A stretch of 64,000 nucleotides of DNA from NCBI GenBank assembly GCA_946541575.1, contig CAMNJQ010000051.1:12985-76984 (forward strand), given 5' to 3'. Numbering within the stretch: position 1 is the stretch's first letter; every line of letters starts with the position of its first letter. This stretch comes from an uncultured Clostridium sp. GTDB taxonomy: Bacteria > Bacillota_I > Bacilli_A > RF39 > UBA660. This document shows positions 6,265 through 63,875 of the stretch, in pieces. The notes beneath the pieces were generated by a model. It made no database searches, was not told where the DNA came from, and was given only the letters and a program-made list of their open reading frames with translations. The translations under genes were made by a program, and so were the position numbers.

Positions 6265-6282
6265 AACTTATGAGGAGCAAAT

Positions 6283-6993: not shown

Positions 6994-7053
6994 TAGTTTA
7001 AAAAAAAGCAAATATATGATATCATTTATAATGATTAGAGGATGTGAATTAAT

Positions 7054-35564: not shown

Positions 35565-35648
35565 AATAAGACCTCCCTTAAAATAAATTACTTGCTAGAT
35601 AACTTTATCATAAATTTTAGTTTTAGTCAAATGTTTTAAGTACATTTG

Positions 35649-35657
35649 TGTTATAAT
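35649..35657 (+). promoter_or_regulatory. Extended -10 promoter (TGtTATAAT) for dnaE
   Basis: TTGTGTTATAAT lies 22 nt before the ATG at 35679. Confidence 0.5.
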
Positions 35658-35678
35658 ACGATTAGGAGGGTTGCAATT

Positions 35679-38600
35679 ATGTATACACCATTATATGTAA
35701 AGAGTAATTATTCATTCTTATCAAGTTTAGTAAAAATTGATGAATTAATTAAAAGTTCTTTGGATAAAAAGATCAAAAGTATTGCATTATGTGATGATAA
35801 CATGATTGCGACTATGTATTTCTATAAAGAATGTATTAAAAATAATATTAAGCCAATTATTGGAGTAAACGTAAAGATAGACAATCAAGATGTTTTGTTC
35901 TATGCTAAAAATTTTGATGGATATAAAAATCTATTAAAAATAGTAACAGAAAAGGACAATTTGAATAATGAGATTATAAAGAATAATAGTGAAAACATAA
36001 TTAGTATAATTCCCTACAAGAGTATAGATTTATATAATAATTTGAAATCAATATTTGGAATAGTATATATTGGAGTTTCAAATAAAGAAGAAGAATTCTC
36101 TGCAAAAGAAATAGATAATAATATTACTTTTATTAATGAAGTTTTATATATTAATAAAAGTGATAGTAAATATTTCCGTTATGCAATAATGATGAGAGAT
36201 AAGAAAAATGTATTAGACGATATAACATATAGTGATAATAACAATTATTTATTAACATACGAAGAAGCAAATAAATTAGTTAGCAAAAAAGTAATAGATG
36301 AAACAAATAAAATTAGCGATATGTGTGATGTTAAATTTATTGAAGGGAAAAATAGAATACCACACTACGAAAATAAGTTTAATCTTTCGAGTAATGATTA
36401 TTTAACTAAGTTAAGCATACAAAGCCTAACATTAAGACTCCAAAATGAAGTGCCAGATGAATATAAGAAAAGATTGCTATATGAACTTGATATAATTAAT
36501 AAAATGAACTTTTCAGACTATTTCTTAATAGTATACGACTTTGTAAGATATGCTAAGAAAAATAAAATATTAGTAGGTCCAGGAAGAGGTAGCGCTGGAG
36601 GAAGTTTAGTCGCATACTCGTTAGGTATTATTGATGTTGATCCGATAAAATATGATTTATTATTCGAAAGATTTTTAAATCCAGGAAGGGTAACAATGCC
36701 CGATATTGATATAGACTTTCCAGATTTATATCGAGATCAAGTAATCAATTATACCAAAGAGAAATATGGAATAAAAAAAGTAGCAGGAATAGTAGCAGTA
36801 GGTACATTAAAAGCTAAAGCAGTTTTAGATGATGTAGCAAGAATTTTAAAAATTGATTCTACAAAAGTTGATAGATTAAAAAAATATATTGATCTTAATT
36901 CTAAACTAAAGGATCTGTATACAAATAATTTTGATTTTAAAAACATTATCGACAATGATGATAGGTTAACAAAATTATATGAGATTTCACTATTTTTTGA
37001 AGGATTTCCAAGAAATACAACAGTACATGCATCAGGAATAGTAATATCAAAAGATGACTTAGATGATATAGTTCCATTAATTAAACAAGAAGATAGTTAT
37101 ATAGCATCTTATGAAGGAGCATATTTAGAAGAATTAGGACTTTTAAAAATGGACTTTCTTGGAAATAGTAACCTTACAATAATAATGGAAATATTAAAAA
37201 GTATCAAAGAAAATGAAGGAATAGATATTAACTTTTTAGATATTCCACTAGATGATAAAGATACACTTAACTTATTTAATAAAGTATTTACAAATGGTAT
37301 ATTTCAATTTGAAAGTGACACAATGAAAAACTTATTGAAAAGACTTAATGTTACAAACTTCTTAGACATTGTGGCAGCAGATGCTTTAGTAAGACCAGGA
37401 CCTGATACCACAACATATATTGAAAGAAAAAAATCTAATACAAAAATAGACTATCCAAACAATGAATTAAAAAGAATATTAGAGCCTACTTATGGAGTTT
37501 TAGTATATCAAGAACAAATCATGCAAATTGCTAATGTTATGGCAGGATTTACTTTACAAGAAGCAGATATCTTAAGAAGAGCAATGTCAAAAAAGAAAAG
37601 AGATCTTTTAAAAGTACAGGAAGAAAAATTCATAAATGGAGCAATAAATAAAGGATATGAATATAAAATTGCAAAGTCATATTATGATGACATATTATCT
37701 TTTGCTGAATATGGCTTTAATAAATCACATGCAGTAGCATATTCTATGATTGCTTATAAAATGGGGTATTTAAAAGTACATTTCCCAAAATATTTTTACT
37801 TGAATTTGTTAACAATGATAATTGGAAAAGAGTCTAAAACATCATTAATAATTAGAGAAGCTAGAGCATTAGGAGTTGAGTTCTTATTACCTAATATAAA
37901 TAAAAGTACAGAAAAGTATGAAATAACTGATAAAGGAATATTATTTCCACTTTCTATGATAAAAAGTATTGGATTAAACACTGCAAGAGAAATTGTAAAA
38001 ATAAGAAAAGATGGTTTTAAGAATTTATTTGAATGCTTAACAAAATTATTAGAATTAAATATTAATAAAAAAACAATAGAACTACTTACATATGCTTCTT
38101 GTTTTGACTGCTTTAATTACAACAAAAAAACTATATTAGAAAATCTTGATAATTTACTTACATTTGCATATGTATCAAAAGGACTTCCTCTAGATATGAT
38201 AGAACATCCTAAAGTAGATATAAAAGAAGAATATGATCAGGTTTATCTAATGAATAAAGAAAAAGAAATATTTGGCTTCTATTTAAGTTATCATCCTACA
38301 TCAAAATATAAAGAAATTTATAAAGTATATAATTTAAATGATGTAAATAAATATATTGGTAGAATAATAGATACTATAGCAATGATTGATAAAATTAAAG
38401 TTCATAAAGATAAGAATGGAAAGGAAATGGCTTTTATTACGGGTAGTGATGAATTTGATTCAATAGAATATATATTCTTTTCTTCTGTGTATGAAACAAT
38501 TAAAGAGATAGAAAAAGGTAAAATTCTTTTAGTACAAGGAAAAGTAGAAAAAAGAACAAATATACAAATTATTGCAGAAAAAGCTAAAATAATTGGGTAA
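35679..38600 (+). CDS. dnaE: DNA polymerase III alpha subunit, DnaE type
   Basis: The PHP N-terminus is YTPLYVKSNYSFLSS. GPGRGSAGGSLVAYSLGI and PDIDIDF are present, and FNKSHAVAYS is also present. The start follows an AGGAGGG SD. Confidence 0.93.
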   Translation: MYTPLYVKSNYSFLSSLVKIDELIKSSLDKKIKSIALCDDNMIATMYFYKECIKNNIKPIIGVNVKIDNQDVLFYAKNFDGYKNLLKIVTEKDNLNNEIIKNNSENIISIIPYKSIDLYNNLKSIFGIVYIGVSNKEEEFSAKEIDNNITFINEVLYINKSDSKYFRYAIMMRDKKNVLDDITYSDNNNYLLTYEEANKLVSKKVIDETNKISDMCDVKFIEGKNRIPHYENKFNLSSNDYLTKLSIQSLTLRLQNEVPDEYKKRLLYELDIINKMNFSDYFLIVYDFVRYAKKNKILVGPGRGSAGGSLVAYSLGIIDVDPIKYDLLFERFLNPGRVTMPDIDIDFPDLYRDQVINYTKEKYGIKKVAGIVAVGTLKAKAVLDDVARILKIDSTKVDRLKKYIDLNSKLKDLYTNNFDFKNIIDNDDRLTKLYEISLFFEGFPRNTTVHASGIVISKDDLDDIVPLIKQEDSYIASYEGAYLEELGLLKMDFLGNSNLTIIMEILKSIKENEGIDINFLDIPLDDKDTLNLFNKVFTNGIFQFESDTMKNLLKRLNVTNFLDIVAADALVRPGPDTTTYIERKKSNTKIDYPNNELKRILEPTYGVLVYQEQIMQIANVMAGFTLQEADILRRAMSKKKRDLLKVQEEKFINGAINKGYEYKIAKSYYDDILSFAEYGFNKSHAVAYSMIAYKMGYLKVHFPKYFYLNLLTMIIGKESKTSLIIREARALGVEFLLPNINKSTEKYEITDKGILFPLSMIKSIGLNTAREIVKIRKDGFKNLFECLTKLLELNINKKTIELLTYASCFDCFNYNKKTILENLDNLLTFAYVSKGLPLDMIEHPKVDIKEEYDQVYLMNKEKEIFGFYLSYHPTSKYKEIYKVYNLNDVNKYIGRIIDTIAMIDKIKVHKDKNGKEMAFITGSDEFDSIEYIFFSSVYETIKEIEKGKILLVQGKVEKRTNIQIIAEKAKIIG

Positions 38601-38652
38601 ATAATTAATAATTGTGATATATTTATATATGTATATGGTTGGTGGTGAATAA

Positions 38653-39489
38653 ATGAACATACAATTTATAGTTAATGACTATTTACTAGCATGGAACTTA
38701 TTATTTAGACCTTCGATTTCCGAAGAAATACAAAAGCTTAAAGAGCGTTTATATAAAAACTATTCTAAAGAATATATGAAATTAAAAAATGAAAATGTTG
38801 AAATAATGAAATATACAAATGACTTTATTCCTGATGATGATTTAATATATAACTTTGTATTTGAAAGTGAAGAATTCAAATTAGTAAAAAAACAAACCGA
38901 TAAATATAGAAGATTTTTGATGAAAATATGGGATTCTCATCAAAAAGTAATTCAATCATCTTTGAAAGAATTATTACGATTTAAAGTAGAAGATAATTAC
39001 CAAATACTTGTAATTCATCCATATTTTGATAATGTAGAATTTTTAAAAAAGAATCCTAAGAAAAACATTGCATGGGGAAAAAGAGAAGATACAGAGGATG
39101 GATTAAAAGCCGTAATGAGAGTACTTTTTACTGCCATAAAATATGAACTAAATGATTACCAAGAAAATAATAGAGAAATCGTTACCGCAATAGAAGATCT
39201 TCTTGTAACAAATGAAATATACACAAGAATAGTAGGTTATTCTAAATATGATGAGGGAATAAAAAGACTTAAATTATTAAAAAAGCAATTATATCCATAT
39301 TGGTTAATGTATCAAGGCGCAGATAGAGAAGAATTAGTAAGTTACATGATGAGAGATAGAATGCCATTTGATATAGATAAATATCCAATAGAAAAAGGAC
39401 TTAGAAAAATAGATTTGAAAGAATTTATTGACTTTTGTTGTAATAATCAAAAATATATAATAAAGTTAAATGAACTTGATAATTTATAA
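38653..39489 (+). CDS. Hypothetical protein (278 aa) between dnaE and polC
   Basis: A clean ORF with a GGTGGTGA SD. It has no TM helix and I recognise no motif. Confidence 0.55.
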   Translation: MNIQFIVNDYLLAWNLLFRPSISEEIQKLKERLYKNYSKEYMKLKNENVEIMKYTNDFIPDDDLIYNFVFESEEFKLVKKQTDKYRRFLMKIWDSHQKVIQSSLKELLRFKVEDNYQILVIHPYFDNVEFLKKNPKKNIAWGKREDTEDGLKAVMRVLFTAIKYELNDYQENNREIVTAIEDLLVTNEIYTRIVGYSKYDEGIKRLKLLKKQLYPYWLMYQGADREELVSYMMRDRMPFDIDKYPIEKGLRKIDLKEFIDFCCNNQKYIIKLNELDNL

Positions 39490-39507
39490 ATAACAGAGAG
39501 GTAAAAT

Positions 39508-42500
39508 ATGGACGAAAAAATGCGTAAAATAATGACTAAAATCAACTTGAATGAATCATATTTCACTCTCTTTTCTAATGCAAAAATATGCAAAAATAAA
39601 ACAGATGAATTAAATAATATTATTTCAATAGATATATCAAATGATGGTGATATATCTTATGAAATGTATGATGAACTTGTTGATAAATTTTCATCTTTTT
39701 TTGATGAAGCTAAAGTCAATTTAAAAATAATAAATAATATAGATAAAAGTGATAATTTTCAAAAAAACTTTTATAAAATCATAGATAATAATTATGAAGA
39801 ATTACCTAATATCAAAGCTTTATTAGAAAAAATAGAAATAGTAGGTAATACAATAAATGTCAAAGTAGTTAATGAAAGAGAAAAACAAGATTTAGAAGAC
39901 GACTTGATGAAACTAAAAAAATATCTTTCCTCTTATGGTACTTCTTTTAATTCCTCAATTGACATAGATGACAATATTAGAATAGAAATAGAAGAACAAA
40001 TAGATAATGAATCAGTTGAAATAATGAGTAAACCTTATGTTCAATATGAACCAGTTAAAACTAGTTCTTTTCCTAGAAGAAGAAAAAAAGAAGTAGATGA
40101 AAAAACAATATTTGGTAATCTTATAAAAGATGATGAAGCAATTACAAAAATAAGTTCAATAGTTGGAGAAAATAATGATATTGTAATAGAAGCTAAAGTA
40201 TTTGGAACAGAAGAATTTATTCCACAAAGCAAAGCTTTTAAAATACTAACATTAAAAGTTAGTGATGGAACAGATAGTATTTTATGTAAGATTTTTGTAA
40301 GAGATGATGAATTATATGATGAATTAGTTAAAAAGACAAAACCAGGAACATGGATAAAACTAAAAGGAAGTACAAAATATGATGAATACTCAAAAAATGA
40401 ATTAGTACTTACTGCATATGACGTCTATGAATCAACAAAGAAAGATAAGAAATTAATTGATGATGCAGAAGAAAAAAGAGTAGAGTTACATGCACATACC
40501 ATGATGAGTCAAATGGATGCAGTAACAAAATTAGATCTTGATAAGCATACATGTGAATTAGTAACAAATGCAATAGAAATGGGCTATTCTGCAGTCGCAG
40601 TAACAGATCATTCGGGCTGTCAAGCATTTCCAATTGTTTACGAATTAATAACATCATCAAATAAAGGAAAAATAAAAAAATTAAAATCACAAAAAGAAGA
40701 ATTAGAAACAAAACTACAGCAAGAAGAAAATGAAGAAGAAAAAAAAGTTATAGAAAATGATTTAGAAAGTGTAAATCAAAAAATAAAAGATTTTAAAAAT
40801 TTTAAAGGAATATATGGAACTGAATTAACTCTAGTAGACGATACAGTTAATATAGTTTTAAGACCAACTGACTTAGATCTTTTAAACACAGAATATGTTG
40901 TATTTGATACAGAAACAACAGGATTTAATGCTGCTGGTGGAGATCAAATGATTGAAATTGGTGCAGTTAAAATTAAAAATGGTGAAATAATAGATACATT
41001 TGATGAACTAATTGATCCAAAAAGACCAATACCAAAGAAAATTACTGAATTAACTAATATTACTGATGAGATGGTAAAAGGTAAAGATAGTGAGGAAAAT
41101 GTAACAAAAAGGTTCCTTGAATGGACAAAAGATAGTCCTATGGTAGCACATAATGCAAAATTTGATGTTTCATTTATTGAAATGGCTATGAAAAAATACA
41201 ATCTAGGAGAATTTAAAAACACTGTAATTGATACATTAGAATTATCAAGAACACTTGATCAAGGCTTTGCAAGACATTCACTTTCTGCACTTGTATCAAG
41301 ATACAATGTTGAGTTTGATGAAGAAGGACACCATAGAGCAGACTACGATGCATTGGGAACTGCGAAAGTATTCCATAAAATGCTTTTAAAATTAGTAAAT
41401 CAGAACTTTAAAACAATTTCTGATTTAGATAGATTAATATCAAAAGATGAAATACATAAATTTGGAAGAACATTCCATTTTAATGCAATAGCATTAAACA
41501 AAAAAGGACTAAAAAATCTATTTAAAATTATTTCACTTGCAAATACTGTATATCTATATAAAACTCCTAGAATACTAAGAAGTAAGCTAGAAGAATTAAG
41601 AGAAGGGTTATTAGTCGGAAGCGGATGCTATAATTCAGAAGTCTTTATCGAAGCAAGAAGTAAAGAAGGAGAAGAACTTACTAACATAATTAATTTCTAT
41701 GATTATGTAGAAGTGCAACCACCAGAAGTTTATAATCATTTAATACAAACTAGTGATTTTAAAGATGAAAATGAATTATTAGAACACATTCAAAAAGTAA
41801 TAAATGCAACAAAAGAAGCAGGAAAAATAATAGTAGCAACTGGGGATGTTCATCATTTCTACAAAGAAGATAAGATATATCGTGAAGTAATAATTAATCA
41901 AAAGGTTCCTGGAGGTGGAAGACATCCTCTTGCAAGAAAAGAAATAACAGAGATTCCTTCACAACACTTTAGAACCACTAATGAAATGCTTAATGACTTT
42001 AATTTCTTAGATAAAGATTTAGCATATGAAATTGTAGTAAAAAATACAAACAAAATTGCTGATATGGTTGAAGAATTTGAAGTAATACCAGATACTGGAG
42101 GAATTCCTTTTTCACCTCGTGTAAAAAGTGATGATGGAAATAGTTATCTAGATTGTCCAAAAGTAGTTACAGATTTAGTATTTGATAAAGCTAAAGAGTG
42201 GTATGGAGATCCACTACCATATAATATTGAAGAACGTATAGCAAAAGAATTATATGGTGATATTGTATACAATATTTATAGTGAAAAAATTAAAAATGAA
42301 AATCCTGATATTAGTGATGAAGAGTTTAATAAATTAGTGTTTAGAGAAGTACATAATACAGTTATTAGTGGATTTGATAAAGTAAAAGAATTAGTTAGTG
42401 ACTATCTAAATAATAATTGGAATACTTTAAGAGAAAAATGGAAAGATGATGAAAAAGAATTAGAACTTAATGAAAAAAATTTAAATAAAAAATTAAAAAG

Positions 42501-44484
42501 TATGCTAGGAGGAATTATTGGTGGAGGATTTGATCCAATATACCTAATTGCTCAAAGACTAGTTAAACACTCAAATGATGATGGATATTTAGTTGGATCT
42601 CGTGGTTCTGTTGGATCAAGTTTAGTAGCAGGTCTAATGGGAATTTCAGAAGTAAATCCACTACCACCACACTATAGATGTACAAATTGTAAGAAAAGTA
42701 TTTTTGAAGATGAAGGAGGATCTCCTCTTGGAGCAACTTATTTATCAGGATTTGATTTACCAGATAAAAAATGTCCAAATTGTGGAACATCTATGCTTAA
42801 AGATGGACAAGATATTCCATTTGCAACATTCTTGGGATTTAATGCTGATAAAGTTCCAGACATAGATTTAAACTTTAGTGATTTGAATCAAGCTTCAGCT
42901 CATGAGTATACAAAAGTATTATTTGGAGTTGATAATGTTTATCGTGCTGGTACTATCGGAACAGTTGCGGATAAAACTGCATATGGTTTCGTTTTGGGCT
43001 TCTTTGAAGATAAAATAATGGATATAATTTCTGAAATAGCAAAGAGCCTTGATAAAACAGTAGAAGAATTATTATCAGTAGAAAAAAAAGAAAAAGTTAA
43101 TATAATTGCAAGAAAGTTTTTATTATTACAAGAAAAAATAAAAAAAGAAGTACCATCTAATATTGCAGGTCAATTTGATGAAATGGTAAGAAAAGTAAAA
43201 GAATATTCAAATATCAGAAGTGCAGAAATAGAAAGAATATCACTAGGTTGTGTTGGAGCAAAAAGAACAACAGGACAACATCCTGGCGGAATAGTTGTTG
43301 TACCTGATTATAAAGACGTATGTGAGTTTACACCATTTCAATTTCCTGCAGATGATCCAAATAGTGCATGGAGAACAACCCATTTCTCATATCATGCAAT
43401 TGACCAATGCCTTTTAAAACTAGATATATTAGGTCATTCCGATCCAACTCAGTTGCGTATGATTCAAGATTTAACTAAAACTGATATATTAAAAGTACCA
43501 ATGGATGATAAGGAAACAATGAGTATATTTTCATCAACAAAAGCCTTAGGAGTTACAACAGAACAAATTTTAAATAATACAGGAACATTAGGTATTCCTG
43601 AATTTGGTACTAATTTTACTATTTCTATGGTTGAAGATACAAAACCAAAAACGTTTGCAGAATTAATTAAAATATCTGGACTATCACATGGAACTGATGT
43701 TTGGACAGGGAATGCTCAAGAATTAATTAGAAATAATATTGTTCCATTTAAAGATGTTATAGGTTGTCGTGATGACATTATGGTATATCTAATTTATCAT
43801 GGACTACCTCCAATTAAAGCATTTAAAATAATGGAATTTGTTCGTAAAGGAAAAGCAAGTAAAGATCCTAAAACATGGGCAGAACATAAAGAAACTATGG
43901 AAAAAGCTGGAATAGAATCATGGTTCATTGACTCTTGTGAAAAAATAAAATACATGTTCCCTAAGGCTCATGCAGCAGCATATGTTACTAGTGCATTTAG
44001 AATTGCTTGGTATAAAGTTCATATGCCAGTATACTTTTATGCTTCATGGTTAACTTCAAAAGCAACTGATGTAGATGTTGAAGTTATGATGAGAGGATAT
44101 AATGATATAAGAGAAAAGATAATTGAAATACAAACTAAAGGATTTGATGCAACAAATAAAGAAACAGGACAACTTGAAAGTCTAAAAGTTTGTTTAGAAG
44201 CAACAGCAAGAGGAATTAACTTTGTACCTATTGATTTAAATAAAAGTAATGCAACTGTCTGGGGAGTAAAGGATGAAAATAACATTTACCCACCATTTTC
44301 AGCAATAGATGGCCTAGGTGATACCGTAGCAAAAGCAATTGTGGAAGAAAGAGAAAAAAGACCATTTACAAGTATTGAAGACTTACAAAAAAGAGCAAAA
44401 GTTTCCCAAACTTTACTAGATAAACTTAAGAGAATGAGAATATTAGATAATCTTGATGAATCTGATCAATTATCATTATTCTAA
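39508..44484 (+). CDS. polC: DNA polymerase III PolC type (1658 aa, unusually long)
   Basis: The PHP motif is ELHAHTMMSQMDA and the exonuclease motif is VVFDTETTG. A CxxC...CxxC zinc module and GSRGSVGSS are present, as are PDIDLNF, RTTGQHPGG and KAHAAAYV. Confidence 0.95.
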   Translation: MDEKMRKIMTKINLNESYFTLFSNAKICKNKTDELNNIISIDISNDGDISYEMYDELVDKFSSFFDEAKVNLKIINNIDKSDNFQKNFYKIIDNNYEELPNIKALLEKIEIVGNTINVKVVNEREKQDLEDDLMKLKKYLSSYGTSFNSSIDIDDNIRIEIEEQIDNESVEIMSKPYVQYEPVKTSSFPRRRKKEVDEKTIFGNLIKDDEAITKISSIVGENNDIVIEAKVFGTEEFIPQSKAFKILTLKVSDGTDSILCKIFVRDDELYDELVKKTKPGTWIKLKGSTKYDEYSKNELVLTAYDVYESTKKDKKLIDDAEEKRVELHAHTMMSQMDAVTKLDLDKHTCELVTNAIEMGYSAVAVTDHSGCQAFPIVYELITSSNKGKIKKLKSQKEELETKLQQEENEEEKKVIENDLESVNQKIKDFKNFKGIYGTELTLVDDTVNIVLRPTDLDLLNTEYVVFDTETTGFNAAGGDQMIEIGAVKIKNGEIIDTFDELIDPKRPIPKKITELTNITDEMVKGKDSEENVTKRFLEWTKDSPMVAHNAKFDVSFIEMAMKKYNLGEFKNTVIDTLELSRTLDQGFARHSLSALVSRYNVEFDEEGHHRADYDALGTAKVFHKMLLKLVNQNFKTISDLDRLISKDEIHKFGRTFHFNAIALNKKGLKNLFKIISLANTVYLYKTPRILRSKLEELREGLLVGSGCYNSEVFIEARSKEGEELTNIINFYDYVEVQPPEVYNHLIQTSDFKDENELLEHIQKVINATKEAGKIIVATGDVHHFYKEDKIYREVIINQKVPGGGRHPLARKEITEIPSQHFRTTNEMLNDFNFLDKDLAYEIVVKNTNKIADMVEEFEVIPDTGGIPFSPRVKSDDGNSYLDCPKVVTDLVFDKAKEWYGDPLPYNIEERIAKELYGDIVYNIYSEKIKNENPDISDEEFNKLVFREVHNTVISGFDKVKELVSDYLNNNWNTLREKWKDDEKELELNEKNLNKKLKSMLGGIIGGGFDPIYLIAQRLVKHSNDDGYLVGSRGSVGSSLVAGLMGISEVNPLPPHYRCTNCKKSIFEDEGGSPLGATYLSGFDLPDKKCPNCGTSMLKDGQDIPFATFLGFNADKVPDIDLNFSDLNQASAHEYTKVLFGVDNVYRAGTIGTVADKTAYGFVLGFFEDKIMDIISEIAKSLDKTVEELLSVEKKEKVNIIARKFLLLQEKIKKEVPSNIAGQFDEMVRKVKEYSNIRSAEIERISLGCVGAKRTTGQHPGGIVVVPDYKDVCEFTPFQFPADDPNSAWRTTHFSYHAIDQCLLKLDILGHSDPTQLRMIQDLTKTDILKVPMDDKETMSIFSSTKALGVTTEQILNNTGTLGIPEFGTNFTISMVEDTKPKTFAELIKISGLSHGTDVWTGNAQELIRNNIVPFKDVIGCRDDIMVYLIYHGLPPIKAFKIMEFVRKGKASKDPKTWAEHKETMEKAGIESWFIDSCEKIKYMFPKAHAAAYVTSAFRIAWYKVHMPVYFYASWLTSKATDVDVEVMMRGYNDIREKIIEIQTKGFDATNKETGQLESLKVCLEATARGINFVPIDLNKSNATVWGVKDENNIYPPFSAIDGLGDTVAKAIVEEREKRPFTSIEDLQKRAKVSQTLLDKLKRMRILDNLDESDQLSLF

Positions 44485-44506
44485 AAGAGCCATTCTCTTT
44501 TTTTGT
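44484..44506 (+). terminator. Weak rho-independent terminator after polC
   Basis: AAAGAG-loop-CTCTTT hairpin followed by a T-run. Confidence 0.35.
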
Positions 44507-44525
44507 TTACTAATTAATAACTTTA

Positions 44526-44534
44526 TGATATAAT
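44526..44534 (+). promoter_or_regulatory. Extended -10 promoter (TGaTATAAT) for the sigma paralog
   Basis: TG-n-TATAAT lies 26 nt upstream of the ATG at 44560. Confidence 0.45.
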
Positions 44535-44559: not shown

Positions 44560-46692
44560 ATGAATAAGTATTTTACAAACCATATTAAAGATAATAAATA
44601 TTCTTATATTAAAGACCTAAACCTTTCAGAAGATGATCTTCAAGTTAAAAAAAATGATATTGAAAATATTGAATATGATGAAAATGATGATGAATTTAAT
44701 AATGAATATGATGATTTTGAGAATGGATTAAAAATCTATTTAAAAGAAATAAGTAATTATAAAGTCATGACTAGTGAAGAAGAAATTGAATTAGCAAAAA
44801 AAATCGAGAATAATGATAAATTAGCCGAAGAAGAATTTATAAATAGAAGTTTAAGACTGGTTCCAAAAATAGCCAAGAGATATATAAATAGAGGATTAGA
44901 TCTACAAGATTTAATTCAAGAAGGAAATATTGGATTATCTAAGGCAGTAAAAAAGTATGATTATAGAAAAGGATACAGATTTTCTACTTATGCAACCTAT
45001 TGGATAATGCAATCTATTTCTAGGGCAGTTTATTATAAAGGTAGAACAATTAAACTTCCATTACAAATTAGTGAGAAAATAGTTGTAATGAATAGATATA
45101 TGAACAACTATTATGCTAGATTTGGAAAAGAACCAGAAAGAGAAGAAATAGCAAAAGAACTTGATATTTCTCTTGAGGAAGTACCTGTTCTACTAAGTTG
45201 TAGAGAAAGAATTGAAAGTTTAAACACTGAAATTGAATATGGAACAGAAAATGTTTCGGAAAAAGAGTTATTAAATTCTATACCAGATGAAAATATAAAT
45301 ATCGAAGATGAGATTATATCAAAAATAGATATAATTGAAAGATTTAAAGAAGTATTTAAAACATTAGACATTCCTCAAAGAAATTTAGAAATGTTATTAA
45401 TGAGAGTAGGAGATAGCCAAACTGATTCACAGTCATATGAAGAAATTGGGAAAAAATTTGGCATGACATCTGAAAGAACAAGACAAATAATAAAACGAAC
45501 TCTAACTATTCTTAATCTTCCAAATAATAAAACATATGTTGAAAATTATATAAAAGGTTTTCAAGAAACTGAAGAAAAAGATAGCGGTGGATTTGCTGAA
45601 AATGGCAATGAGGAACTAAAACAATTAATAGATAAAGTAAAGGAAGAATGTAAGCTAAGTGATGTAGAAATGAATGTTTATATAATGAAACTTGGCTTAG
45701 AATATGGTAAACCAAATAGTTTTGATAATATTGCAAAACAACTAAATATAACAAAAGAAATTGCTAAAAAAACATACAATAAAGTATCATTTATAATTAA
45801 AGAAAACCCTGTTGCATATACAATTATAACTGGATATATTTCAAAATTAAGAGATGAGAAGAAAAAAGTAATAAAAAATAAAAATTTAAATATTATTGAG
45901 GAGATTTTTAATAATCCAAACTTAAACAAGCTTAAAGATTATTCAAACATGACAAAAAAAGAATTGGAAATAGTATCACTTAGGTATGGTTTAATAAACT
46001 ATAAGTATATTGAAATCAATAAAATTGCTGATTTATATGAGACACTACCACAAAATATTATTTATATTTTAAATAAAGCAACAAAAAAAATATATGATAA
46101 TCAACAAGCATTAAAATTATTTAATGATATGGTTTTAAATGATGAATCATTGCAAAAAAATGGTAATATTTCAAATCAGAAAACATTAGTTAATAAAAGA
46201 TTAGGTTGTACAAAAGAAGAATTAGAATCTGTTTTGGAATGTCTTTCACCATTAGAACTGATGCTATATTTAAGGGTAATAAAAAATGATCCAACAATAA
46301 TAAATGAAGAAAAAAAGGCTTTTGAGAATATAATACTAGTAAAATTAAAGGAAGCATTAGTAACTCAAAGATATAAAAAAGATAAAGCTAAAATAATTGA
46401 AAGTATCAAAAAAGAAAACATTAGTGTAAGTGTTATTCAAACAATGATAACATATATAAATGATTCGTCTTTTTCATCGCTACTTAATAAATTTGACTAT
46501 AAAGAATTAATATCTTTCATATTATATTATGGATTATATGATAACAATAGATATTCTATAGAAGATATTTCGAATTTCTTTGGATTAAAAATTGAAGAAG
46601 TAGATAATATAATAAAAAATATTTTAAAATCTTTAAGAGAAAACAAACTTACACATCAAGAAAATAAAAATAAAAGAATAATAAAAAAATAA
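44560..46692 (+). CDS. Sigma-70 family factor (regions 1.2-4) fused to a ~370-aa C-terminal array of extra region-4-like HTH modules
   Basis: Region 2 is [41 protein letters not shown] and region 3.0 is RTIKLPLQISEKI. Region 4.2 is SYEEIGKKFGMTSERTRQIIKRTL. Repeated sigma-4-like units follow: LSDVEMNVYIMKLGLEYGKPNSFDNIAKQLNITKEIAKKTYNKV, ELEIVSLRYGLINYKYIEINKIADLYETLPQNIIYILNKATKKI and YYGLYDNNRYSIEDISNFFGLKIEEVDNIIKNILKSL. Confidence 0.75.
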   Translation: MNKYFTNHIKDNKYSYIKDLNLSEDDLQVKKNDIENIEYDENDDEFNNEYDDFENGLKIYLKEISNYKVMTSEEEIELAKKIENNDKLAEEEFINRSLRLVPKIAKRYINRGLDLQDLIQEGNIGLSKAVKKYDYRKGYRFSTYATYWIMQSISRAVYYKGRTIKLPLQISEKIVVMNRYMNNYYARFGKEPEREEIAKELDISLEEVPVLLSCRERIESLNTEIEYGTENVSEKELLNSIPDENINIEDEIISKIDIIERFKEVFKTLDIPQRNLEMLLMRVGDSQTDSQSYEEIGKKFGMTSERTRQIIKRTLTILNLPNNKTYVENYIKGFQETEEKDSGGFAENGNEELKQLIDKVKEECKLSDVEMNVYIMKLGLEYGKPNSFDNIAKQLNITKEIAKKTYNKVSFIIKENPVAYTIITGYISKLRDEKKKVIKNKNLNIIEEIFNNPNLNKLKDYSNMTKKELEIVSLRYGLINYKYIEINKIADLYETLPQNIIYILNKATKKIYDNQQALKLFNDMVLNDESLQKNGNISNQKTLVNKRLGCTKEELESVLECLSPLELMLYLRVIKNDPTIINEEKKAFENIILVKLKEALVTQRYKKDKAKIIESIKKENISVSVIQTMITYINDSSFSSLLNKFDYKELISFILYYGLYDNNRYSIEDISNFFGLKIEEVDNIIKNILKSLRENKLTHQENKNKRIIKK

Positions 46693-46713: not shown

Positions 46714-46747
46714 AGTCATTACCAAAAAATATGTAATGACTTTTTTA
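46714..46747 (+). terminator. Rho-independent terminator after the sigma paralog
   Basis: AGTCATTAC-loop-GTAATGACT hairpin followed by T6. Confidence 0.6.
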
Positions 46748-46771
46748 AGTTTTAAAAGAATTCGCAAACTT

Positions 46772-46801
46772 TTGACAATTATCCCAAAATTATTACATAA
46801 T
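46772..46801 (+). promoter_or_regulatory. Orphan sigma-A-type promoter
   Basis: TTGACA-N18-CATAAT. No credible ORF lies downstream before the terminator at 46988-47012. Confidence 0.4.
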
Positions 46802-46987
46802 TATTTTATATACTTAATTTATCAAAAGGAGATGATGAGTATAGAAGAAAGAGTAGTATAACAATTAAATATTTGAAAAACATAGTTAATAAAACTATTT
46901 AAAATTTATAAAAATAAATTTTGCTATAAGCATAAAACTTGTTAAAAAGAAATAAAGAAAGGAAGATGTTATCGAATAGTAACATAA

Positions 46988-47012
46988 AGTCGAGTAGCCC
47001 TCGACTTTTTTT
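46988..47012 (+). terminator. Rho-independent terminator (GC-rich stem) upstream of dnaG
   Basis: AGTCGAG-TAGCC-CTCGACT hairpin followed by T7. Confidence 0.65.
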
Positions 47013-47013
47013 G

Positions 47014-47041
47014 TTGAAATAATCTTTATTTGAAGTATAAT
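47014..47041 (+). promoter_or_regulatory. Sigma-A-type promoter for dnaG-rpoD-trmK
   Basis: TTGAAA-N16-TATAAT lies 21 nt before the dnaG ATG. Confidence 0.5.
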
Positions 47042-47062
47042 ATCTATGTAATAGGAGGAACT

Positions 47063-48793
47063 ATGGACAATCAAAATACAATTAATGAAATTAGAAGTAA
47101 AATAGATATTATAGAAATAATTGAAGAATATGTTCCTCTTACTAAAAAAGGTAAATATTATTGGGGAATATGTCCTTTTCATAATGATAAAAATCCTTCA
47201 ATGAGTGTTGATTCTGAAAGACAAACTTATACGTGTTGGAGTTGTCATAATAGTGGTAATGTTTTTAACTTTGTTGAACAAATAGAAAATATTTCATTTA
47301 GAGAAGCATTGGAAAAACTTGGAAATAGAGTAGGAATTCAATTAAATGGAATAAAAACTAACTATAATTCAAAATATAATCATTATTATGAAATATATGA
47401 TTTATCACAAAAGTTTTATCAATTAATGCTAAATACCGAAAAAGGCGATAAAGCAAAAGAATATTTAAAAAATCGTGGAATAGATGAAGAAACAATTAAA
47501 GAATTTGGAATTGGTCTTGCATTAAATGAAAAAGACAAGTTAATAAATTATTTAAAACAAAAAAGCTATGATATAAATACCTTAAATGATCTAGGACTTG
47601 CTAATAATGAAAATGATACTTTTATTAATAGAATTATGTTTCCTCTTGATGATAGAAATGGAAGAATAGTAGGGTTTTCAGGGCGTATTTATGATAATTC
47701 AAAAATGAGTAAATATATGAATACAAAAGAAACTCCAATATTTAAAAAAGGAACATGTCTATATCACTATAATGCTTCCAAAGAATTTGTAAGAGAAAGC
47801 AAATATGTAATAGTAATGGAAGGATTCATGGATGTAATAAGAGCATCAACTATAGGAATTAAAAATACTGTAGCACTTATGGGAACTGCATTAACTGAAG
47901 AAAATATATCTTTATTAAAGAAATTATCATTAAATATTTATTTATGTTTAGATGGTGATAAGCCAGGACAAGATAGTGATTTACATAATGGAGAACTACT
48001 TGAAAAAGCTGGATTTAATGTCAAAGTAGTAAGACTTACAAATGATGAAGATCCTGATTCATATATATTAAAATATGGAAAAGATAAATTTGTTTCACTT
48101 GTAGAAAATGCTTCTAATTATAGCGATTTTAAAATAGATAGCTTAAAGAATAATATCAATTTTGAAAGTGATAAAGATCTTTCAAATTATATTAATAAAG
48201 TAATAAAAGAAGTCTCTACAATTAAAGATGAAATTAGATGCGAAATTATTCTCAAAAAACTTGCAAAAGAAACAAATGTGAGTTATAATACACTAGAAAA
48301 AAAATTAAATGAGTACAAAAGTCTTGATGATGAAGGAAAAAAGAAAATAGAAGATAATCTTATTGAGAGAAAAAATGTAAAGAAAAATAAATATGAACGA
48401 GCATCACTAGAATTTATTTATTATATGCTTATAAATCCTGAAGTAATTAAAGTATATGATAATAAAAAGCTATATTTTATTGGTCCTTTATATAGAAATC
48501 TTGCTGCAGAGATTAGTTATTATTACCATGAGTATGGAGAAATAAATATCGCAGATTTTTACACTTATTTAAATGATAAGAAAGAGTTACTAGGCTTATT
48601 TAATGAAGTCCAACTTCTTGATCTTGAAAAAGAAATTAGTGATTCCACTATTATGGAGTATGTTAAAGTTATTAGTGATTATAATATTTCTGAGGAAATA
48701 AAAAAGCTTGAACAACTAATGAGGAAAGAAAATGATGAAGAAGAAAAGATAAAGTTATTGGAAAAGATTAGAAAGCTTAGAATTGGGGAGTGA
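47063..48793 (+). CDS. dnaG: DNA primase
   Basis: The zinc ribbon is [13 protein letters not shown]...[11 protein letters not shown]. The TOPRIM motifs are [10 protein letters not shown] and [10 protein letters not shown]. The start at MDNQN follows an AGGAGG SD. Confidence 0.93.
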
Positions 48794-48797
48794 AAGT

Positions 48798-49886
48798 ATG
48801 ATTGAAGAAATCAAAACTGTCGAAGAAAGAAAGAAAACATTAATCGAAAAAGGAAAAAAACAAGGATATGTTACTTATGAACAACTTGTAGATGAATTAA
48901 AAGGATTAGATGTAGATAGCGATACCCTTGATGATTTATATAATACATTAGTTGAAAATAGCATAGAAATTATAAGTGAAACTGCTGATAATGGAACAGA
49001 TGATGAAGATCCAGCTGGATTAATTGTAGAAGATTTAACTATGTCAAAAGACATAAAAATAAATGATCCAGTTAGAATGTACTTAAAAGAGATTGGTAGA
49101 ATTAATCTTCTTACTACTGATGAAGAATTTGAATATGCAAAACTTGCTGAACAAGGTGATGAATATGCAAAGAAAATGCTTGCAGAATCTAATCTTCGTC
49201 TTGTTGTAAGTATTGCTAAAAGATATGTTGGAAGAGGAATGCTTTTCCTTGATTTGATTCAAGAAGGAAACATTGGTCTTATGAAAGCAGTTGACAAGTT
49301 TGATCCATCAAAAGGGTATAAGTTTTCAACTTATGCAACATGGTGGATAAGACAAGCAATAACAAGAGCAATAGCAGACCAAGCAAGAACTATTCGTGTT
49401 CCTGTACATATGGTAGAAACAATCAATAAACTAGCTCGTGTTCAAAGACAACTTACACAAGAGCTAAATCGTGAACCTACTGAAGAAGAACTTGCAAAGA
49501 AATTAAATATTACTGTTGATAAAGTAAGAGAAGTATATAAAATATCCCAAGATCCAGTTTCTCTTGAAACTCCAATTGGTGAAGAAGATGACTCTCATTT
49601 AGGAGATTTTATTAAAGATGAAAGAACAATGTCTCCTGAAGAATATGCTACTGTTGAAATGTTAAAAGAAGAATTAGCAAGTGTTCTTTTAACATTAACT
49701 GATAGAGAAGAAAAAGTTCTAAGATTGAGATTTGGTCTTGATGATGGACAATGTAGAACACTAGAAGAAGTAGGACAAATATTTGGTGTAACACGTGAAA
49801 GAATTCGTCAAATTGAAGCTAAAGCATTAAGAAAATTAAGACATCCATCCCGTTCAAGAAAGCTAAAGGATTTCTTAATTGATTAA
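48798..49886 (+). CDS. rpoD: Primary RNA polymerase sigma factor
   Basis: Regions 1.2-4.2 are canonical. Examples are [61 protein letters not shown] and [29 protein letters not shown]. An ATG at 48798 follows GGGGAG. Confidence 0.95.
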
Positions 49887-50652: not shown

Positions 50653-52722
50653 ATGGAAAAGAAAAAAGAAAGTACTACCAAAAAGAAAACTATTACTAAG
50701 AAGACTAATAACAAAAAGACAATTAAGAAAACAACTACAAGAAAAAACACAAAAAAGAAGAGTAAAGCATTCACATTAATTGAATTACTTGCAGTAATAA
50801 TAATACTTGGAATATTAATGATTATAGCAATTCCTAGTGTAACAACCTATATTAGTGACTCAAGAAAAAGTGCTTATATTGATACAGCTAAAAATATAGT
50901 AGGTGGAGCAAGAAATTTAGTAAATGAAGGTAAATTAGGAATGTATAATACTGATACAACATATTATCTTCCAGCTAAAATGATAAAAACAGAAACAGGA
51001 GATTTAAAATCTCCTTATGGGGAATTTACAGAAGCATATGTTGCAGTAACATTTGATGGAAAAGGATATGATTATTACTGGACAAGTACCGATACTACAG
51101 AACAAGGAATATATTTAACATCAGTGGATAAATTAGACAATGATAGAGTAGTCGCTGGAGTAAAAGAAATAAATACAGATGTTGCAATATGTAATAAAGA
51201 AAAGATTGTAATCTTTAATTCAGATGGAACAATTAAGGAGCAAAAAGAAGCAGATGATTGTATTGATAAAAATTTTTATTATGAAGTTGAGCCAAATAGA
51301 GAGATTACAGGAACTCTTATAGGTAATGATGATGATGTTTTTACTACATTTGGCTATAGAGTTGCGAGACATGGATTGGAAAGTATTACTTTCTTAAATC
51401 ATATTAATGTTCCTGATAATGCTATTGCTTCATGGGATGCATCTGTTGAACAAAATGGGTCAATTATGGCATGGTATACAAATGAAAACAATAATTTGTA
51501 TTATGAGTTGTATGTTGGACAGGAAGGAGGAGTTATAGCGCCTAAAGATTGTAGCTATTTATTTGATTTTACAGTAGAAGTTTCTAAAATAGACTTAACT
51601 TATTTTGATACTAGATATGTTGAAAATATGGATAAAATGTTTTATCGAGCAGGAAGAGATAATCCAGATTTTAAAATTATAGGTCTTTCTAATCTAAATA
51701 CAAAAAATGTTAAAAGTATGAGTAGAATGTTTTACGAAGCTTCTGAGAAAGCAAATTTTGATTATGATATTTCTAAATGGAATGTATCTAAGGTTGAAGA
51801 TATGTCATTAATGTTCTATTATACAGGTGTTTATTCATCCACATTTAGACTTGGTGATATTGGTCGTTGGAACGTATCTAATGTTAAAACTTTTTATTCA
51901 TTTTTTGCATCAGCTGGTAGAAATGCAACAACTTGGACAATAGGTGATTTATCTAGGTGGAATATCTCAAATGCAACTAATCTTTATGGCATGTTCAGTG
52001 ATGCAGGTTCGACAGCAACATCTTGGAATATTGGTGATTTAAGCAATTGGAATGTTTCTAATGCAACAAATATTGCTTTTATGTTTTATCATAGTGGACT
52101 ATCATCAAATTCATTTAACCTTGGAAATCTTGGTAGATGGGATGTATCTAAGGTTGAAGATATGAGCTCATTGTTTAATACAGCAGGAAAAAATGCAACA
52201 AACTGGTATGTTGGAGATTTAACAAATTGGGATGTTTCAAAAGTTACAAAAATGGGCTTCTTGTTCTATTATGCAGGCTATAATGCAAATAGCTGGAGTG
52301 TAGGAAATCTAAGCAATTGGGATGTTTCAAATGTAACGGATATGAGTGGAATGTTTGCATATTCTGGTTACAAAGCAGAAAATTGGAATATAGGAGAACT
52401 TACTAATTGGGATACTACAAAAGTTACAAATATGTATCGAATGTTTTTTGCAACAGGTAATCTTGCCGGAAATTGGAATAGTATTGGTTCGTTGAAAATT
52501 TATGCTTCCGACATTAGATCTATGTTTAGTCAGTGTACTCAGCCTAAAGTTACTCTTAAGCTTTATTCTAATCCATCTTCTTATAGTCAAGTCTTTCTTA
52601 ATTCAGCTACAAAAGAAGGCAGTTATATAATTATCGATTATTCAAGTAATGTTACTGTAGTCAACGCATTACTTAGAACAATAATTTATACTTCAAATGT
52701 TACTATTGGTAATAAAATATAA
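50653..52722 (+). CDS. Type IV pilin-like N-terminal domain fused to DUF285/BspA-type repeat surface protein
   Basis: A 39-aa Lys/Thr-rich leader precedes A|FTLIELLAVIIILGILMIIAIPS, a class III signal with Glu at +5. The C-terminal half has about 10 repeats of about 30 aa, with a pattern like LsNWdVSnVtdMsgMF..aG. Confidence 0.75.
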   Translation: MEKKKESTTKKKTITKKTNNKKTIKKTTTRKNTKKKSKAFTLIELLAVIIILGILMIIAIPSVTTYISDSRKSAYIDTAKNIVGGARNLVNEGKLGMYNTDTTYYLPAKMIKTETGDLKSPYGEFTEAYVAVTFDGKGYDYYWTSTDTTEQGIYLTSVDKLDNDRVVAGVKEINTDVAICNKEKIVIFNSDGTIKEQKEADDCIDKNFYYEVEPNREITGTLIGNDDDVFTTFGYRVARHGLESITFLNHINVPDNAIASWDASVEQNGSIMAWYTNENNNLYYELYVGQEGGVIAPKDCSYLFDFTVEVSKIDLTYFDTRYVENMDKMFYRAGRDNPDFKIIGLSNLNTKNVKSMSRMFYEASEKANFDYDISKWNVSKVEDMSLMFYYTGVYSSTFRLGDIGRWNVSNVKTFYSFFASAGRNATTWTIGDLSRWNISNATNLYGMFSDAGSTATSWNIGDLSNWNVSNATNIAFMFYHSGLSSNSFNLGNLGRWDVSKVEDMSSLFNTAGKNATNWYVGDLTNWDVSKVTKMGFLFYYAGYNANSWSVGNLSNWDVSNVTDMSGMFAYSGYKAENWNIGELTNWDTTKVTNMYRMFFATGNLAGNWNSIGSLKIYASDIRSMFSQCTQPKVTLKLYSNPSSYSQVFLNSATKEGSYIIIDYSSNVTVVNALLRTIIYTSNVTIGNKI
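51590..52470 (+). repeat. Coding tandem repeats (~90-nt period, ~10 units) of the DUF285/BspA-like module
   Basis: W[ND]VS[KN][VA] .. M...F motifs recur every 30 aa or so. Some units share DNA strings, for example TCTAAGGTTGAAGATATG near 51790 and 52150. Confidence 0.7.
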
Positions 52723-52800: not shown

Positions 52801-53529
52801 ATGATTATGATGAATGAAATAGTATCTTTTTCTAAAGAAATAGATTTTAATAATATGTTAAATAAAATAACTTCAATATCGTTAGAACACACATTAATGA
52901 TTGAAAACTCATCAATAAAAGGAGATCTAATTGTATCAGGAAGTTATATACAAACAATTGCAAGTCAAATAGAAACACCATTTTCATACAAAATACCTGT
53001 AGAAATTGAATTGGATCAAAAATATGATTTAAGTAATGTAACTATTGATATAGATGACTTTACTTATGAAATAATTGATGAAAAAAAATTAAAAGTGAAT
53101 ATTGATTTATTAATAGATAAATTAGAAATAAAAAAAGATAATGAACCTATTGAACAACTTGATGATGAATTAGTATCAGTAAATGATTTATTTAAAGAAA
53201 CAGATGAGGAAAAGAAATTAGATATCCCGCTAACAAATGATATTGAAGAAAAAAAAGAAGATAAAATAGATAATAGTAACATTCAAGACAATAATGATAA
53301 GCAAGAAGAAAAAGATAAAGATGATGAAAAGCAAGAATCATTGTTTTCAAATTTAACATCAACTAATGAATCCTATACAACTTATAAAATATATATTGTA
53401 AAAGAAGAAGACACTTTAGAAAAAATTCTAGAAAAATATAGCATATCTAAACCTCAATTAGAGGAATACAATGATTTGACTAACATATCAAAAGGAACAA
53501 AACTAATTATTCCAAATAATAATGACTAA
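52801..53529 (+). CDS. SpoVID-like protein with C-terminal LysM domain
   Basis: The C-terminal LysM is YKIYIVKEEDTLEKILEKYSISKPQLEEYNDLTNISKGTKLIIP. The N-terminus SFSKEIDF..ITSISLEHTL...IKGDLIVSGSY resembles the SpoVID N-domain. The middle is acidic. The true start may be the ATG at 52807 or 52810. Confidence 0.45.
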   Translation: MIMMNEIVSFSKEIDFNNMLNKITSISLEHTLMIENSSIKGDLIVSGSYIQTIASQIETPFSYKIPVEIELDQKYDLSNVTIDIDDFTYEIIDEKKLKVNIDLLIDKLEIKKDNEPIEQLDDELVSVNDLFKETDEEKKLDIPLTNDIEEKKEDKIDNSNIQDNNDKQEEKDKDDEKQESLFSNLTSTNESYTTYKIYIVKEEDTLEKILEKYSISKPQLEEYNDLTNISKGTKLIIPNNND

Positions 53530-56460: not shown

Positions 56461-56465
56461 ACGAT

Positions 56466-56691
56466 TAATTACGTTGAAGTTGAGGAGTATACTATTTAAG
56501 TTTAAAGAGAGTTAGTGATTGGTGAAAACTAATAACTGGTTAGTAGAAGGTAGCAACTGAGTAGAATTTCTAAGTAAATAGGAAATATCCGCATTACTGC
56601 GTTAAAGTTTTGAGAGTGCAATTAATTGTTGCAAAATAAGGTGGTACCGCGGTAAACTCGTCCTTAAATATAGTTAAGGAGGAGTTTTTTT
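56466..56691 (+). promoter_or_regulatory. T-box riboswitch leader, probable Val specifier (GUA at 56550-56552)
   Basis: An AGAGA box (56506-56510) and a distal-loop-like TGGTGAAAA are present, with an F-box-like GCGTTA. The T-box sequence is AAATAAGGTGGTACCGCG (56635-56652). A terminator hairpin at 56656-56685 is followed by a T-run. valS lies downstream. Confidence 0.8.
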
Positions 56692-63791: not shown

Positions 63792-63868
<77 letters not shown>

Positions 63869-63875
63869 GTTTTTT

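Follow-up and report, generated by a model that had tools for sequence, protein, structure and literature searches.

A sigma-70 family with a conserved tail of region-4-derived domains in uncultured gut and rumen Bacilli

Introduction

The stretch of DNA considered here (the window; 64,000 nucleotides, positions 12,985 to 76,984 of contig CAMNJQ010000051.1, assembly GCA_946541575.1) comes from an uncultured Clostridium sp. and carries, at 44560..46692 on the + strand, a complete open reading frame (ORF) with an ATG start that encodes a protein of 710 amino acids (aa). The predicted product is an alternative sigma-70-family initiation factor and a paralogue of the housekeeping sigma factor RpoD, which is encoded nearby. 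Five region-4-type domains are present in this protein, namely one canonical region 4 and four extra ones (modules A to D) in a C-terminal tail. That it is a real sigma-family protein with four additional domains derived from sigma region 4 we regard as very probable. Together with its relatives it forms an apparently undescribed, fast-evolving group within the sigma-70 family, marked by a conserved tail whose domains derive from region 4.

Region 4 of sigma factors binds the -35 element, the beta flap of RNA polymerase, most class II activators and many anti-sigma factors. To our knowledge, all well-studied sigma-70 proteins contain exactly one region 4, and we know of nothing that has been established about transcription control in the uncultured gut and rumen Bacilli concerned here. 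The conserved family described below carries between 2 and about 14 region-4-derived domains per sigma, the terminal copy being better conserved than the working region 4, which implies an undescribed mode of sigma regulation or of promoter engagement. The family is widespread in these abundant bacteria, and several paralogues can adjoin. The modules are small, confidently predicted and separable, and the hypotheses discussed here are therefore directly testable with recombinant proteins.

The sigma core

Regions 1.2, 2, 3 and 4 of the sigma-70 family are found in order in the 710-aa protein, all above the curated Pfam thresholds: Sigma70_r1_2 at residues 57-87 (39.7 bits, cut-off 22), Sigma70_r2 at 94-157 (61.0 bits, cut-off 24), Sigma70_r3 at 172-226 (39.4 bits, cut-off 25.3) and Sigma70_r4 at 277-316 (55.6 bits, cut-off 24.1). 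Region 1.1 (Sigma70_r1_1) was not detected by Pfam. The core aligns with the neighbouring RpoD from region 1.2 to region 4.2 (38% identity over residues 57-331, E 6e-55, BLASTP), and most recognition residues in regions 2.4 and 4.2 are retained. On the basis of Pfam, of identity to the resident RpoD and of AlphaFold2 models, the core can be delimited to residues 56-330 (44725..45549, + strand), which confirms the complete sigma-70 that the original prediction had placed at about residues 50-320. It consists of region 1.2 (57-87), region 2 (94-157), region 3 (172-226), a region 3.2 linker (about 217-258, of low model confidence) and the canonical region 4 (259-325). An acidic N-terminus (residues 1-55; 44560..44724, + strand) precedes it, with a net charge of -11, predicted to be disordered and without region 1.1; an extension of 380 aa follows it.

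The protein is not a primary sigma factor according to the RpoD equivalog model NF006666, on which it reaches 235 bits against a cut-off of 572. The genuine primary sigma RpoD is encoded about 2 kb downstream by the ORF at 48783..49886, which scores 600 bits on the same model and has region 1.1. Nor does the protein belong to the extracytoplasmic function (ECF, group 4) sigma factors, as regions 1.2 and 3 are present; a core of that type is confined to short relatives such as P0019.

The four tail modules and their origin from region 4

Module A (residues 350-416; 45607..45807, + strand) is a sigma-4-like four-helix helix-turn-helix (HTH) domain, whose recognition helix keeps basic and acidic residues at DNA-contact positions. 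A single long alpha-helix of about 35 residues with a net charge of +5 (residues 417-451; 45808..45912, + strand) joins it to Module B (residues 446-516; 45895..46107, + strand), a sigma-4-like HTH with a non-basic recognition helix. Module C (residues 541-606; 46180..46377, + strand) is a strongly diverged sigma-4 derivative that continues into a long helix (582-618), and Module D (residues 626-707; 46435..46680, + strand) is a terminal sigma-4-like HTH with an extended last helix. The original prediction had recognised at least three further units shaped like region 4 after the core; the three HTH stretches that it quoted correspond to modules A, B and D, and Module C had been missed.

General-purpose profiles detect this relationship only marginally. 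The isolated tail (residues 336-710) reaches 23.0 bits (E 5.8e-5) with Pfam Sigma70_r4, just below the cut-off of 24.1, its best stretch lying in D, and no Pfam signal for region 2 or region 3 is found in the tail. Profile hidden Markov models (HMMs) made from the family carry the assignment further. Seed HMMs built from tail sequences alone, without any canonical region 4, match region 4 of the resident RpoD with 24.6 bits (A), 28.0 bits (B), 17.4 bits (D) and 13.0 bits (C, on the 4.1 helix only). Cross-scores between these seed HMMs suggest that A and B are related more closely to D than they are to the canonical region 4. When larger tail-module profiles of family members were searched against 177,635 PDB sequences, sigma region 4 ranked first for Module B (34.5 bits, E 1.4e-7), Module D (36.3 bits, E 3.4e-8) and Module C (22.6 bits, E 7e-4, spanning the whole domain of 1TTY); for Module A it scored 34.5 bits (E 1.3e-7), just behind a designed HTH-repeat protein matched via five weak repeats. 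A domain count with HMMER, the first check proposed for the predicted array, thus gives four extra modules with family profiles, whereas Pfam on its own leaves the tail just short of its cut-off.

Structure prediction, proposed as a second check, yielded confident modules. AlphaFold2 models rest on alignments of 9 and 15 sequences; the tail model (15 sequences) has a mean predicted local distance difference test (pLDDT) score of 81, with 85-97 for the modules, and residues 331-348, 531-541 and 611-619 are predicted to be disordered. The helix pattern of a canonical region 4 is reproduced by A, B and D, and Module C is modelled as three short helices followed by a 35-residue helix. In a Foldseek search of the tail model against the PDB, the best-ranked matches were all sigma factors, including chimeras of sigmaA region 4 and the beta-flap tip (probability 1.00, target-normalised template-modelling (TM) score 0.5-0.6, root-mean-square deviation 2.4-3.8 A; matches not assigned to individual modules). 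Homology to region 4 and a region-4 fold are therefore both found for the extra modules, the former by family profiles and the latter by AlphaFold2 and Foldseek.

The possibility of a second complete sigma hidden in the tail was also considered. BLASTP gave only weak alignments of RpoD regions 3 and 4, to residues 377-520 and 574-693. Foldseek global TM scores to full sigmaA are 0.16-0.18 and no region-2 or region-3 signal is present; a hidden sigma was rejected and repeated region-4 units were preferred.

Distribution and modular architecture of the family

Exhaustive searching of 1.84 billion representative proteins with phmmer returned 18 matches. Word-indexed homologue searches with the tail and with the tail alignment returned essentially nothing, the K/E/N-rich low-complexity composition saturating the candidates. 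A scan of a species-representative genome collection, for which a five-sequence alignment keyed on the D motif was used, found 78 loci in 78 contigs from species-level genomes; this is a lower bound, as the scan did not recover the genome of the window itself. The host genomes are almost all metagenome-assembled genomes that carry the labels uncultured Bacilli, Tenericutes or Erysipelotrichaceae and were recovered from gut samples of various kinds, human, rabbit and rumen among them; named hosts include Clostridium sp. CAG:524 and Candidatus Faecisoma merdavium. Species-level genomes of uncultured Bacilli and "Tenericutes" that encode homologues thus number at least 78, which answers the question of phylogenetic distribution raised with the original prediction: the window protein is one member of a family and not a one-off.

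All members among the relatives collected by phmmer have a sigma core, followed by a tail in which at most four types of module (A to D) occur. According to a census with module HMMs, most members consist of an N-domain, an RpoD-like core, C and D. Copies of Module C vary from 1 to about 12 per protein. The window protein is itself a C-D-tailed member by score: Module C reaches 69 bits with the seed HMM and 26.6 with the expanded HMM, and Module D 93 and 65 bits, the expanded-HMM values being the fairer figures as the window sequence was in the seed alignment. Short members of 440-510 aa (e.g. P0019) consist of an ECF-like core of region 2 and region 4 followed by C-D. The occurrence of C-D after ECF-like cores and also as stand-alone proteins indicates that C-D is an autonomous cassette. 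Judged by these profiles, the tail common to the family is C plus D, and A-B is an insertion seen in only six proteins, among them all the members linked to polC and dnaG. These six carry the full A-B-C-D array in the same order and are 26-49% identical to each other. The genes of four of them lie in the polC-dnaG interval, namely that of the window protein, two adjacent ones in locus L081 (P0002, 885 aa, and a neighbour of 937 aa) and one in locus L003 whose product has 949 aa. The remaining two are P0004 and P0014; genome context was examined for the other four only.

Several further arrangements were seen. Locus L068 encodes, at 3249-8324, a 1691-aa sigma with about 12 tandem C copies, and a truncated ORF with six C copies lies at 14-1885 of L065. 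Stand-alone C-D proteins of 233-262 aa with no adjoining sigma core are found at L071 7983-8771, L078 8001-8702 and L048 7962-8690. A 730-aa gene product of L003, likewise encoded between polC and dnaG, has three extra region-4-like modules and no C or D. A link between N-domain and tail through split genes received no support, as L067 is an internal-deletion remnant and the gene beside the stand-alone C-D protein of L071 does not encode an N-domain.

Across the 78 loci no recurring operon partner was found; only generic ABC transporter ATPases recur. In four loci a protein of 328-349 aa containing tetratricopeptide repeats (TPR) is encoded 22-260 nt downstream of the family gene. L006 and L011 have it after a short ECF-like C-D-tailed sigma, L005 after an 851-aa member and L026 after a split gene; a TPR-containing protein is also encoded in L077. 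The TPR protein may be a partner of this subgroup.

On sequence, profile and structure evidence, the proteins form a family that is specific to this lineage of uncultured Bacilli from gut and rumen, and of which we found no description. No account of a sigma factor with tandem region-4 domains was found in the literature, in agreement with the original prediction that the architecture was not a described one; most subscription journals lay outside the search, so that absence is unproven. None of the sources searched holds a name for these proteins.

This distribution also bears on a trivial explanation, in which the gene would be an assembly or frameshift fusion, or a decaying paralogue with neutral repeat debris. 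The window protein lacks the N-domain of about 200 aa that is present in most family members, and truncated and split relatives exist (L026, L024, L067), both of which speak for such an explanation. However, the 710-aa ORF recurs intact and identical in two sequences that were assembled independently, a 109-kb ENA scaffold (ERZ28612966) and a separate NCBI metagenome contig; six proteins that share only 26-49% identity keep the same module order; confidence in the predicted modules is high; and D has diverged less than the canonical region 4. Artefact or decay is extremely improbable on these grounds and is largely refuted; in particular, the original prediction had named the fusion of two genes during assembly as an outcome that would overturn it, and neither the two assemblies nor the A-B-C-D order of the five homologues agrees with such a fusion.

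Conservation and DNA-contact residues of the modules

Mean pairwise identities by part were computed among 45 long members. Region 2 is the most conserved (62%), followed by Module D (52%), the canonical region 4 (47%), region 1.2 (43%), Module C (39%), region 3 (38%) and the N-domain (29%). Module D is hence the most conserved element of the tail and the second most conserved part overall, which argues for a conserved binding partner.

The modules differ in the residues that they present to DNA. We take R584, E585, R586, R588 and Q589 of E. coli sigma70 to be the positions that contact the -35 element. By alignment, the equivalents in the resident RpoD are R-E-R-R-Q, and those in the canonical region 4 of the window protein are S-E-R-R-Q, so that E585, R586, R588 and Q589 are kept. 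Module A has K-E-I-K-K at these positions, Module B has P-Q-N-I-Y and Module D has I-E-E-D-N, its contact arginines being replaced. The family consensus of Module C aligns l-p-k-i-k-r, which corresponds to its conserved PKMKRLL helix, with T-R-E-R-I-R-Q, and reads l-p-k-k-r at the contact positions; a K/R-rich stretch follows this conserved basic P-K-M-K-R helix. The set of -35-contact residues is thus approximately present in the canonical domain, partly in A and C, and absent from B and D, and it is because of their P-Q-N-I-Y and I-E-E-D-N residues that the latter two lack DNA-reading side chains. The family consensus of Module D is acidic at the contact positions (...IE..EV.ETTKK...), and its last helix exceeds the sigma-4 counterpart in both length and hydrophobicity. 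Across the family the net charge averages +3.7 in the canonical region 4, +1.2 in C and -2.3 in D. The linker between C and D measures 19-150 aa across the family, is of low complexity and is rich in E, K, S and N.

Module D is thus probably a protein-interaction domain, or sigma-4 mimic, rather than a reader of -35 elements. Module C, and Module A within the small A-B-C-D group, are plausible nucleic-acid binders.

The original prediction had described the tandem domains uniformly as '-35-recognition-like', a description that did not survive this comparison, as the modules are not equivalent, B and D lack the contact residues and D is acidic family-wide. The corresponding functional proposal is a reader of multipartite promoters, in which every extra module would be a sequence-specific, -35-like reader of repeated upstream elements. 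All four modules do have an HTH fold homologous to region 4, A keeps K-E-I-K-K at its DNA-contact positions, and the models place rigid helical spacers between modules. The contact residues lost from B and D and the acidic nature of D count against it, as does the conservation of D, which is too high among paralogues that would be expected to differ in promoter specificity. The contact positions of A also vary freely among the A-B-C-D proteins on inspection of their sequences. We therefore consider a multipartite reader quite unlikely.

A division of labour within the tail

The original prediction had listed self-inhibition, recognition of multipartite promoters and sequestration of the beta flap or of activators as possible roles. 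A division of labour between the modules is favoured over a uniform array of -35 readers. The core would bind RNA polymerase and read promoters of the -10/-35 type in the ordinary way, and the tail would be a cis-acting arm whose modules have different tasks. Two modules carried on long helical spacers, the basic Module C with its K/R-rich end and variable copy number and, in the small A-B-C-D group, Module A, would add nucleic-acid contacts of low specificity at sites upstream of the -35 element. The terminal Module D would not read DNA, and would instead dock as a sigma-4 mimic on a conserved protein partner; the partner might be a regulator, or a surface to which region 4 normally binds (the beta-flap tip, for example). 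In making these contacts, the tail would modulate the timing and placement of the activity of the tailed sigma. An alternative sigma with a tail of this kind is our best explanation as a whole, to which we give somewhat less than an even chance, and the specific allocation of tasks to individual modules must be viewed as doubtful.

A further-reaching proposal, which is speculative and rather unlikely, treats C-D as a portable cassette. Its D would dock on the RNA polymerase flap, on a second polymerase or on a shared regulator, and the degenerate C, A and B units would grip upstream DNA. If true, promoter selectivity or sigma competition would be built into the sigma subunit itself by a novel route; the cassette would replace separate activators or anti-sigma factors in small-genome bacteria, evolving at the speed of an arms race in a hypervariable island beside rpoD.

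Several observations weigh against the division-of-labour proposal. The Foldseek E-values are weak (0.02-0.3), as is expected when a domain of about 70 residues sits inside a multi-domain query. The predicted TM scores (pTM) of the models are 0.28 and 0.44, so that the inter-domain geometry is not confident and neither docking nor a reach to upstream DNA is supported. In the window protein itself the net charges of the modules are small (+2 to -2), and both its C and its D are divergent members of their module families, C lacking the RYG-DL-NP motif and D being only 17-37% identical to D of the other A-B-C-D proteins. Finally, the extreme divergence of the locus, described below, could equally mean relaxed constraint.

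The features of Module D also invite the proposal of an intramolecular anti-sigma mimic, in which extra region-4 copies, above all D, would fold onto the core or compete for the beta-flap tip until a signal releases the tail. Such a device could parallel region 1.1, or the C-terminal extensions that replace an anti-sigma factor in sigmas of the ECF41/42 type. Its appeal lies in the acidic and conserved character of D, which is borne on a flexible linker of variable length, in the absence of region 1.1, in the lack of any conserved anti-sigma-like neighbour around the 78 loci, and in the sigma-4/flap-tip chimeras among the best structural matches. It is difficult to reconcile, however, with stand-alone C-D proteins, which have no sigma core to inhibit in cis, or with the presence of anywhere from 1 to about 12 copies of C, which is hard to fit to one-to-one masking; moreover, the models show no confident intramolecular packing. 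Taken together, this makes an intramolecular anti-sigma mimic unlikely, and a tail with division of labour remains our preferred explanation.

A hypervariable locus between polC and dnaG

The tailed-sigma gene lies in the gene order dnaE, 278-aa ORF, polC, tailed-sigma gene, dnaG, rpoD, trmK, which agrees with its original placement beside the primary sigma operon. Its flanks are well conserved between the window and locus L081, with amino-acid identities of 78% for DnaE, 93% for the 278-aa ORF, 86% for PolC, 83% for DnaG, 98% for RpoD and 71% for TrmK. The tailed sigma and its syntenic counterpart P0002 in L081 are only 37% identical, and nucleotide similarity between the two genes is limited to about 290 nt of region 2. 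Among the syntenic long sigmas, all pairs are 26-37% identical. Either very fast divergence or repeated replacement of a cassette would account for this divergence of the polC-dnaG sigma island. The island holds one gene in the window (44560-46692) and two genes each in L081 (8001-13497) and L003 (4326-9392).

An arms race is suggested by this hypervariability only: the extra region-4 copies might be decoys that titrate phage or plasmid proteins targeting region 4 (AsiA- or Rsd-like), or the island might be a rapidly replaced cassette under diversifying selection. A sigma gene at 37% identity between flanks at 71-98%, with no nucleotide similarity outside region 2, is in keeping with this, as are the 26-37% identities of all syntenic pairs and the one or two gene copies per locus. 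Against it, the neighbourhood is without defence genes, the PADLOC and NCBIfam models of MzaA match via the sigma core only (199.7 vs 800 bits), and no phage homologue of the tail was found. An arms-race decoy is in our view very unlikely. A phage origin of the protein was examined separately and rejected: PHROGs match the sigma core only, a tblastn comparison of the tail with 50,697 phage records was negative, and BFVD gave no fold match at E 0.001.

Transcription unit and neighbouring DNA

The sigma gene looks like a monocistronic unit, and a separate transcription unit just upstream of dnaG-rpoD, as originally proposed, is consistent with its sequence context. A hairpin with a U-run directly after the polC stop (44483..44501, + strand; -4.1 kcal/mol, z -3.2) separates polC from the sigma gene. 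It is followed by a promoter-like TTTACT-17-TATAAT with a TG upstream of the -10 (extended -10; 44506..44534, + strand; 10/12 consensus matches) and, between this site and the ATG at 44560, by the ribosome-binding site (RBS) AAAGGGGA. A terminator-like hairpin with a 9-bp stem, a 10-nt loop and a U-run lies 22 nt after the stop (46714..46741, + strand; -8.6 kcal/mol, z -4.66); it was missed by a consensus scan as its loop exceeds 8 nt. Of the promoter and terminator originally assigned to the gene, the terminator agrees with this hairpin. The promoter at 44506-44534 is a consensus match only, and promoter-like matches are not enriched in the window (20 vs 22.3 in shuffled sequence).

A conserved non-coding block occupies 46755-47041, between the sigma gene and dnaG. 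It contains a promoter-like TTGACA-18-CATAAT (46772-46801), an RBS with a mini-ORF of nine codons (46832-46861; MMSIEERVV), a strong hairpin with a U-run (46986-47008; -13.5 kcal/mol, z -4.6) and a promoter-like TTGAAA-16-TATAAT of dnaG (47014-47041). The start, length and stop position of the mini-ORF are retained in L081 (MMSIEEVKI) and L003 (MKHIEENVV), and nucleotide identity over 46755-46945 is 86% to L081 and 79% to L003, which equals the level of conservation of the flanking coding genes. No Rfam match was found for the block, which might serve as a leader or an attenuator, or give rise to a small RNA, upstream of dnaG-rpoD. Within this operon the likely true starts are ATG 47063 for dnaG (ORF 47030-48793), behind the RBS AGGAGGA, and ATG 48798 for rpoD (ORF 48783-49886), both matching the gene calls of the source scaffold.

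More widely, the window has a G+C content of about 26% and carries nearly all of its genes on the + strand; rpoB is not among them. Upstream of the sigma gene, dnaE and polC adjoin at 35646-44484, with the 278-aa ORF (no Pfam match) between them and a long PolC of 1658 aa. A 1008-aa protein encoded at 3238-6264 has a SpoIID domain (residues 471-552) and an HTH stretch (residues 169-219) that matches the profiles of modules A and B at about 19-20 bits. Within 50653-52722, 52801-53529 and 54656-56434 are encoded two proteins in which an N-terminal methylation motif of the type IV pilin kind is joined to DUF285 repeats or to DUF6273, and one SpoVID-N/LysM protein. The pilin-like, SpoVID-N/LysM and SpoIID proteins suggest an organism with a cell wall, possibly sporulating. 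A T-box leader (132 bits) upstream of the ORF at 56692-57453 and genes for tRNA-Cys, tRNA-Ile and tRNA-Asn are also present (features at 56465-56668, 17915-17988 and 63792-63952).

Comparison with known systems

The window protein, taken as a whole ORF (44560..46692), resembles RpoD/SigA in having regions 1.2, 2.1-2.4, 3 and 4.1-4.2 in the same order, and differs from it in the lack of region 1.1, in a score below the RpoD equivalog cut-off and in a 380-aa tail of four region-4-derived domains. MzaA of the MZA anti-phage system (NF041931, PDLC02203) is likewise an unusually long sigma-70-family protein and is among the better profile matches. The match covers the sigma core only (199.7 bits against a cut-off of 800), no MZA partner genes are present nearby (the neighbours being polC and dnaG), and the core of MzaA sits C-terminally by profile match, so that its extra length is N-terminal. 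Membership of the MZA defence system was rejected, as the PADLOC match runs through the core only.

Arrays of region-4-like HTH units in one polypeptide are also found in P0007 (938 aa) and P0015 (1692 aa), both of which are uncharacterised. Their repeats are near-canonical and uniform (P0015 reaches 162.8 bits with Pfam Sigma70_r4) and include no C or D module types. Neither Pfam nor inspection reveals a sigma core in P0007, and in P0015 the array appears by inspection to lie N-terminal to an ECF-like sigma.

In functional terms the ECF41, ECF42 and ECF56 groups come closest, in which a fused C-terminal extension regulates the sigma factor in cis (general knowledge and PMC7730460). These proteins and the window protein have in common a sigma factor with a covalent C-terminal domain and no adjacent anti-sigma gene. 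The extensions of the ECF groups, however, are SnoaL-like or TPR domains, which are unrelated folds and not copies of region 4, whereas the window protein joins its region-4-derived tail to a full RpoD-like core that includes region 3.

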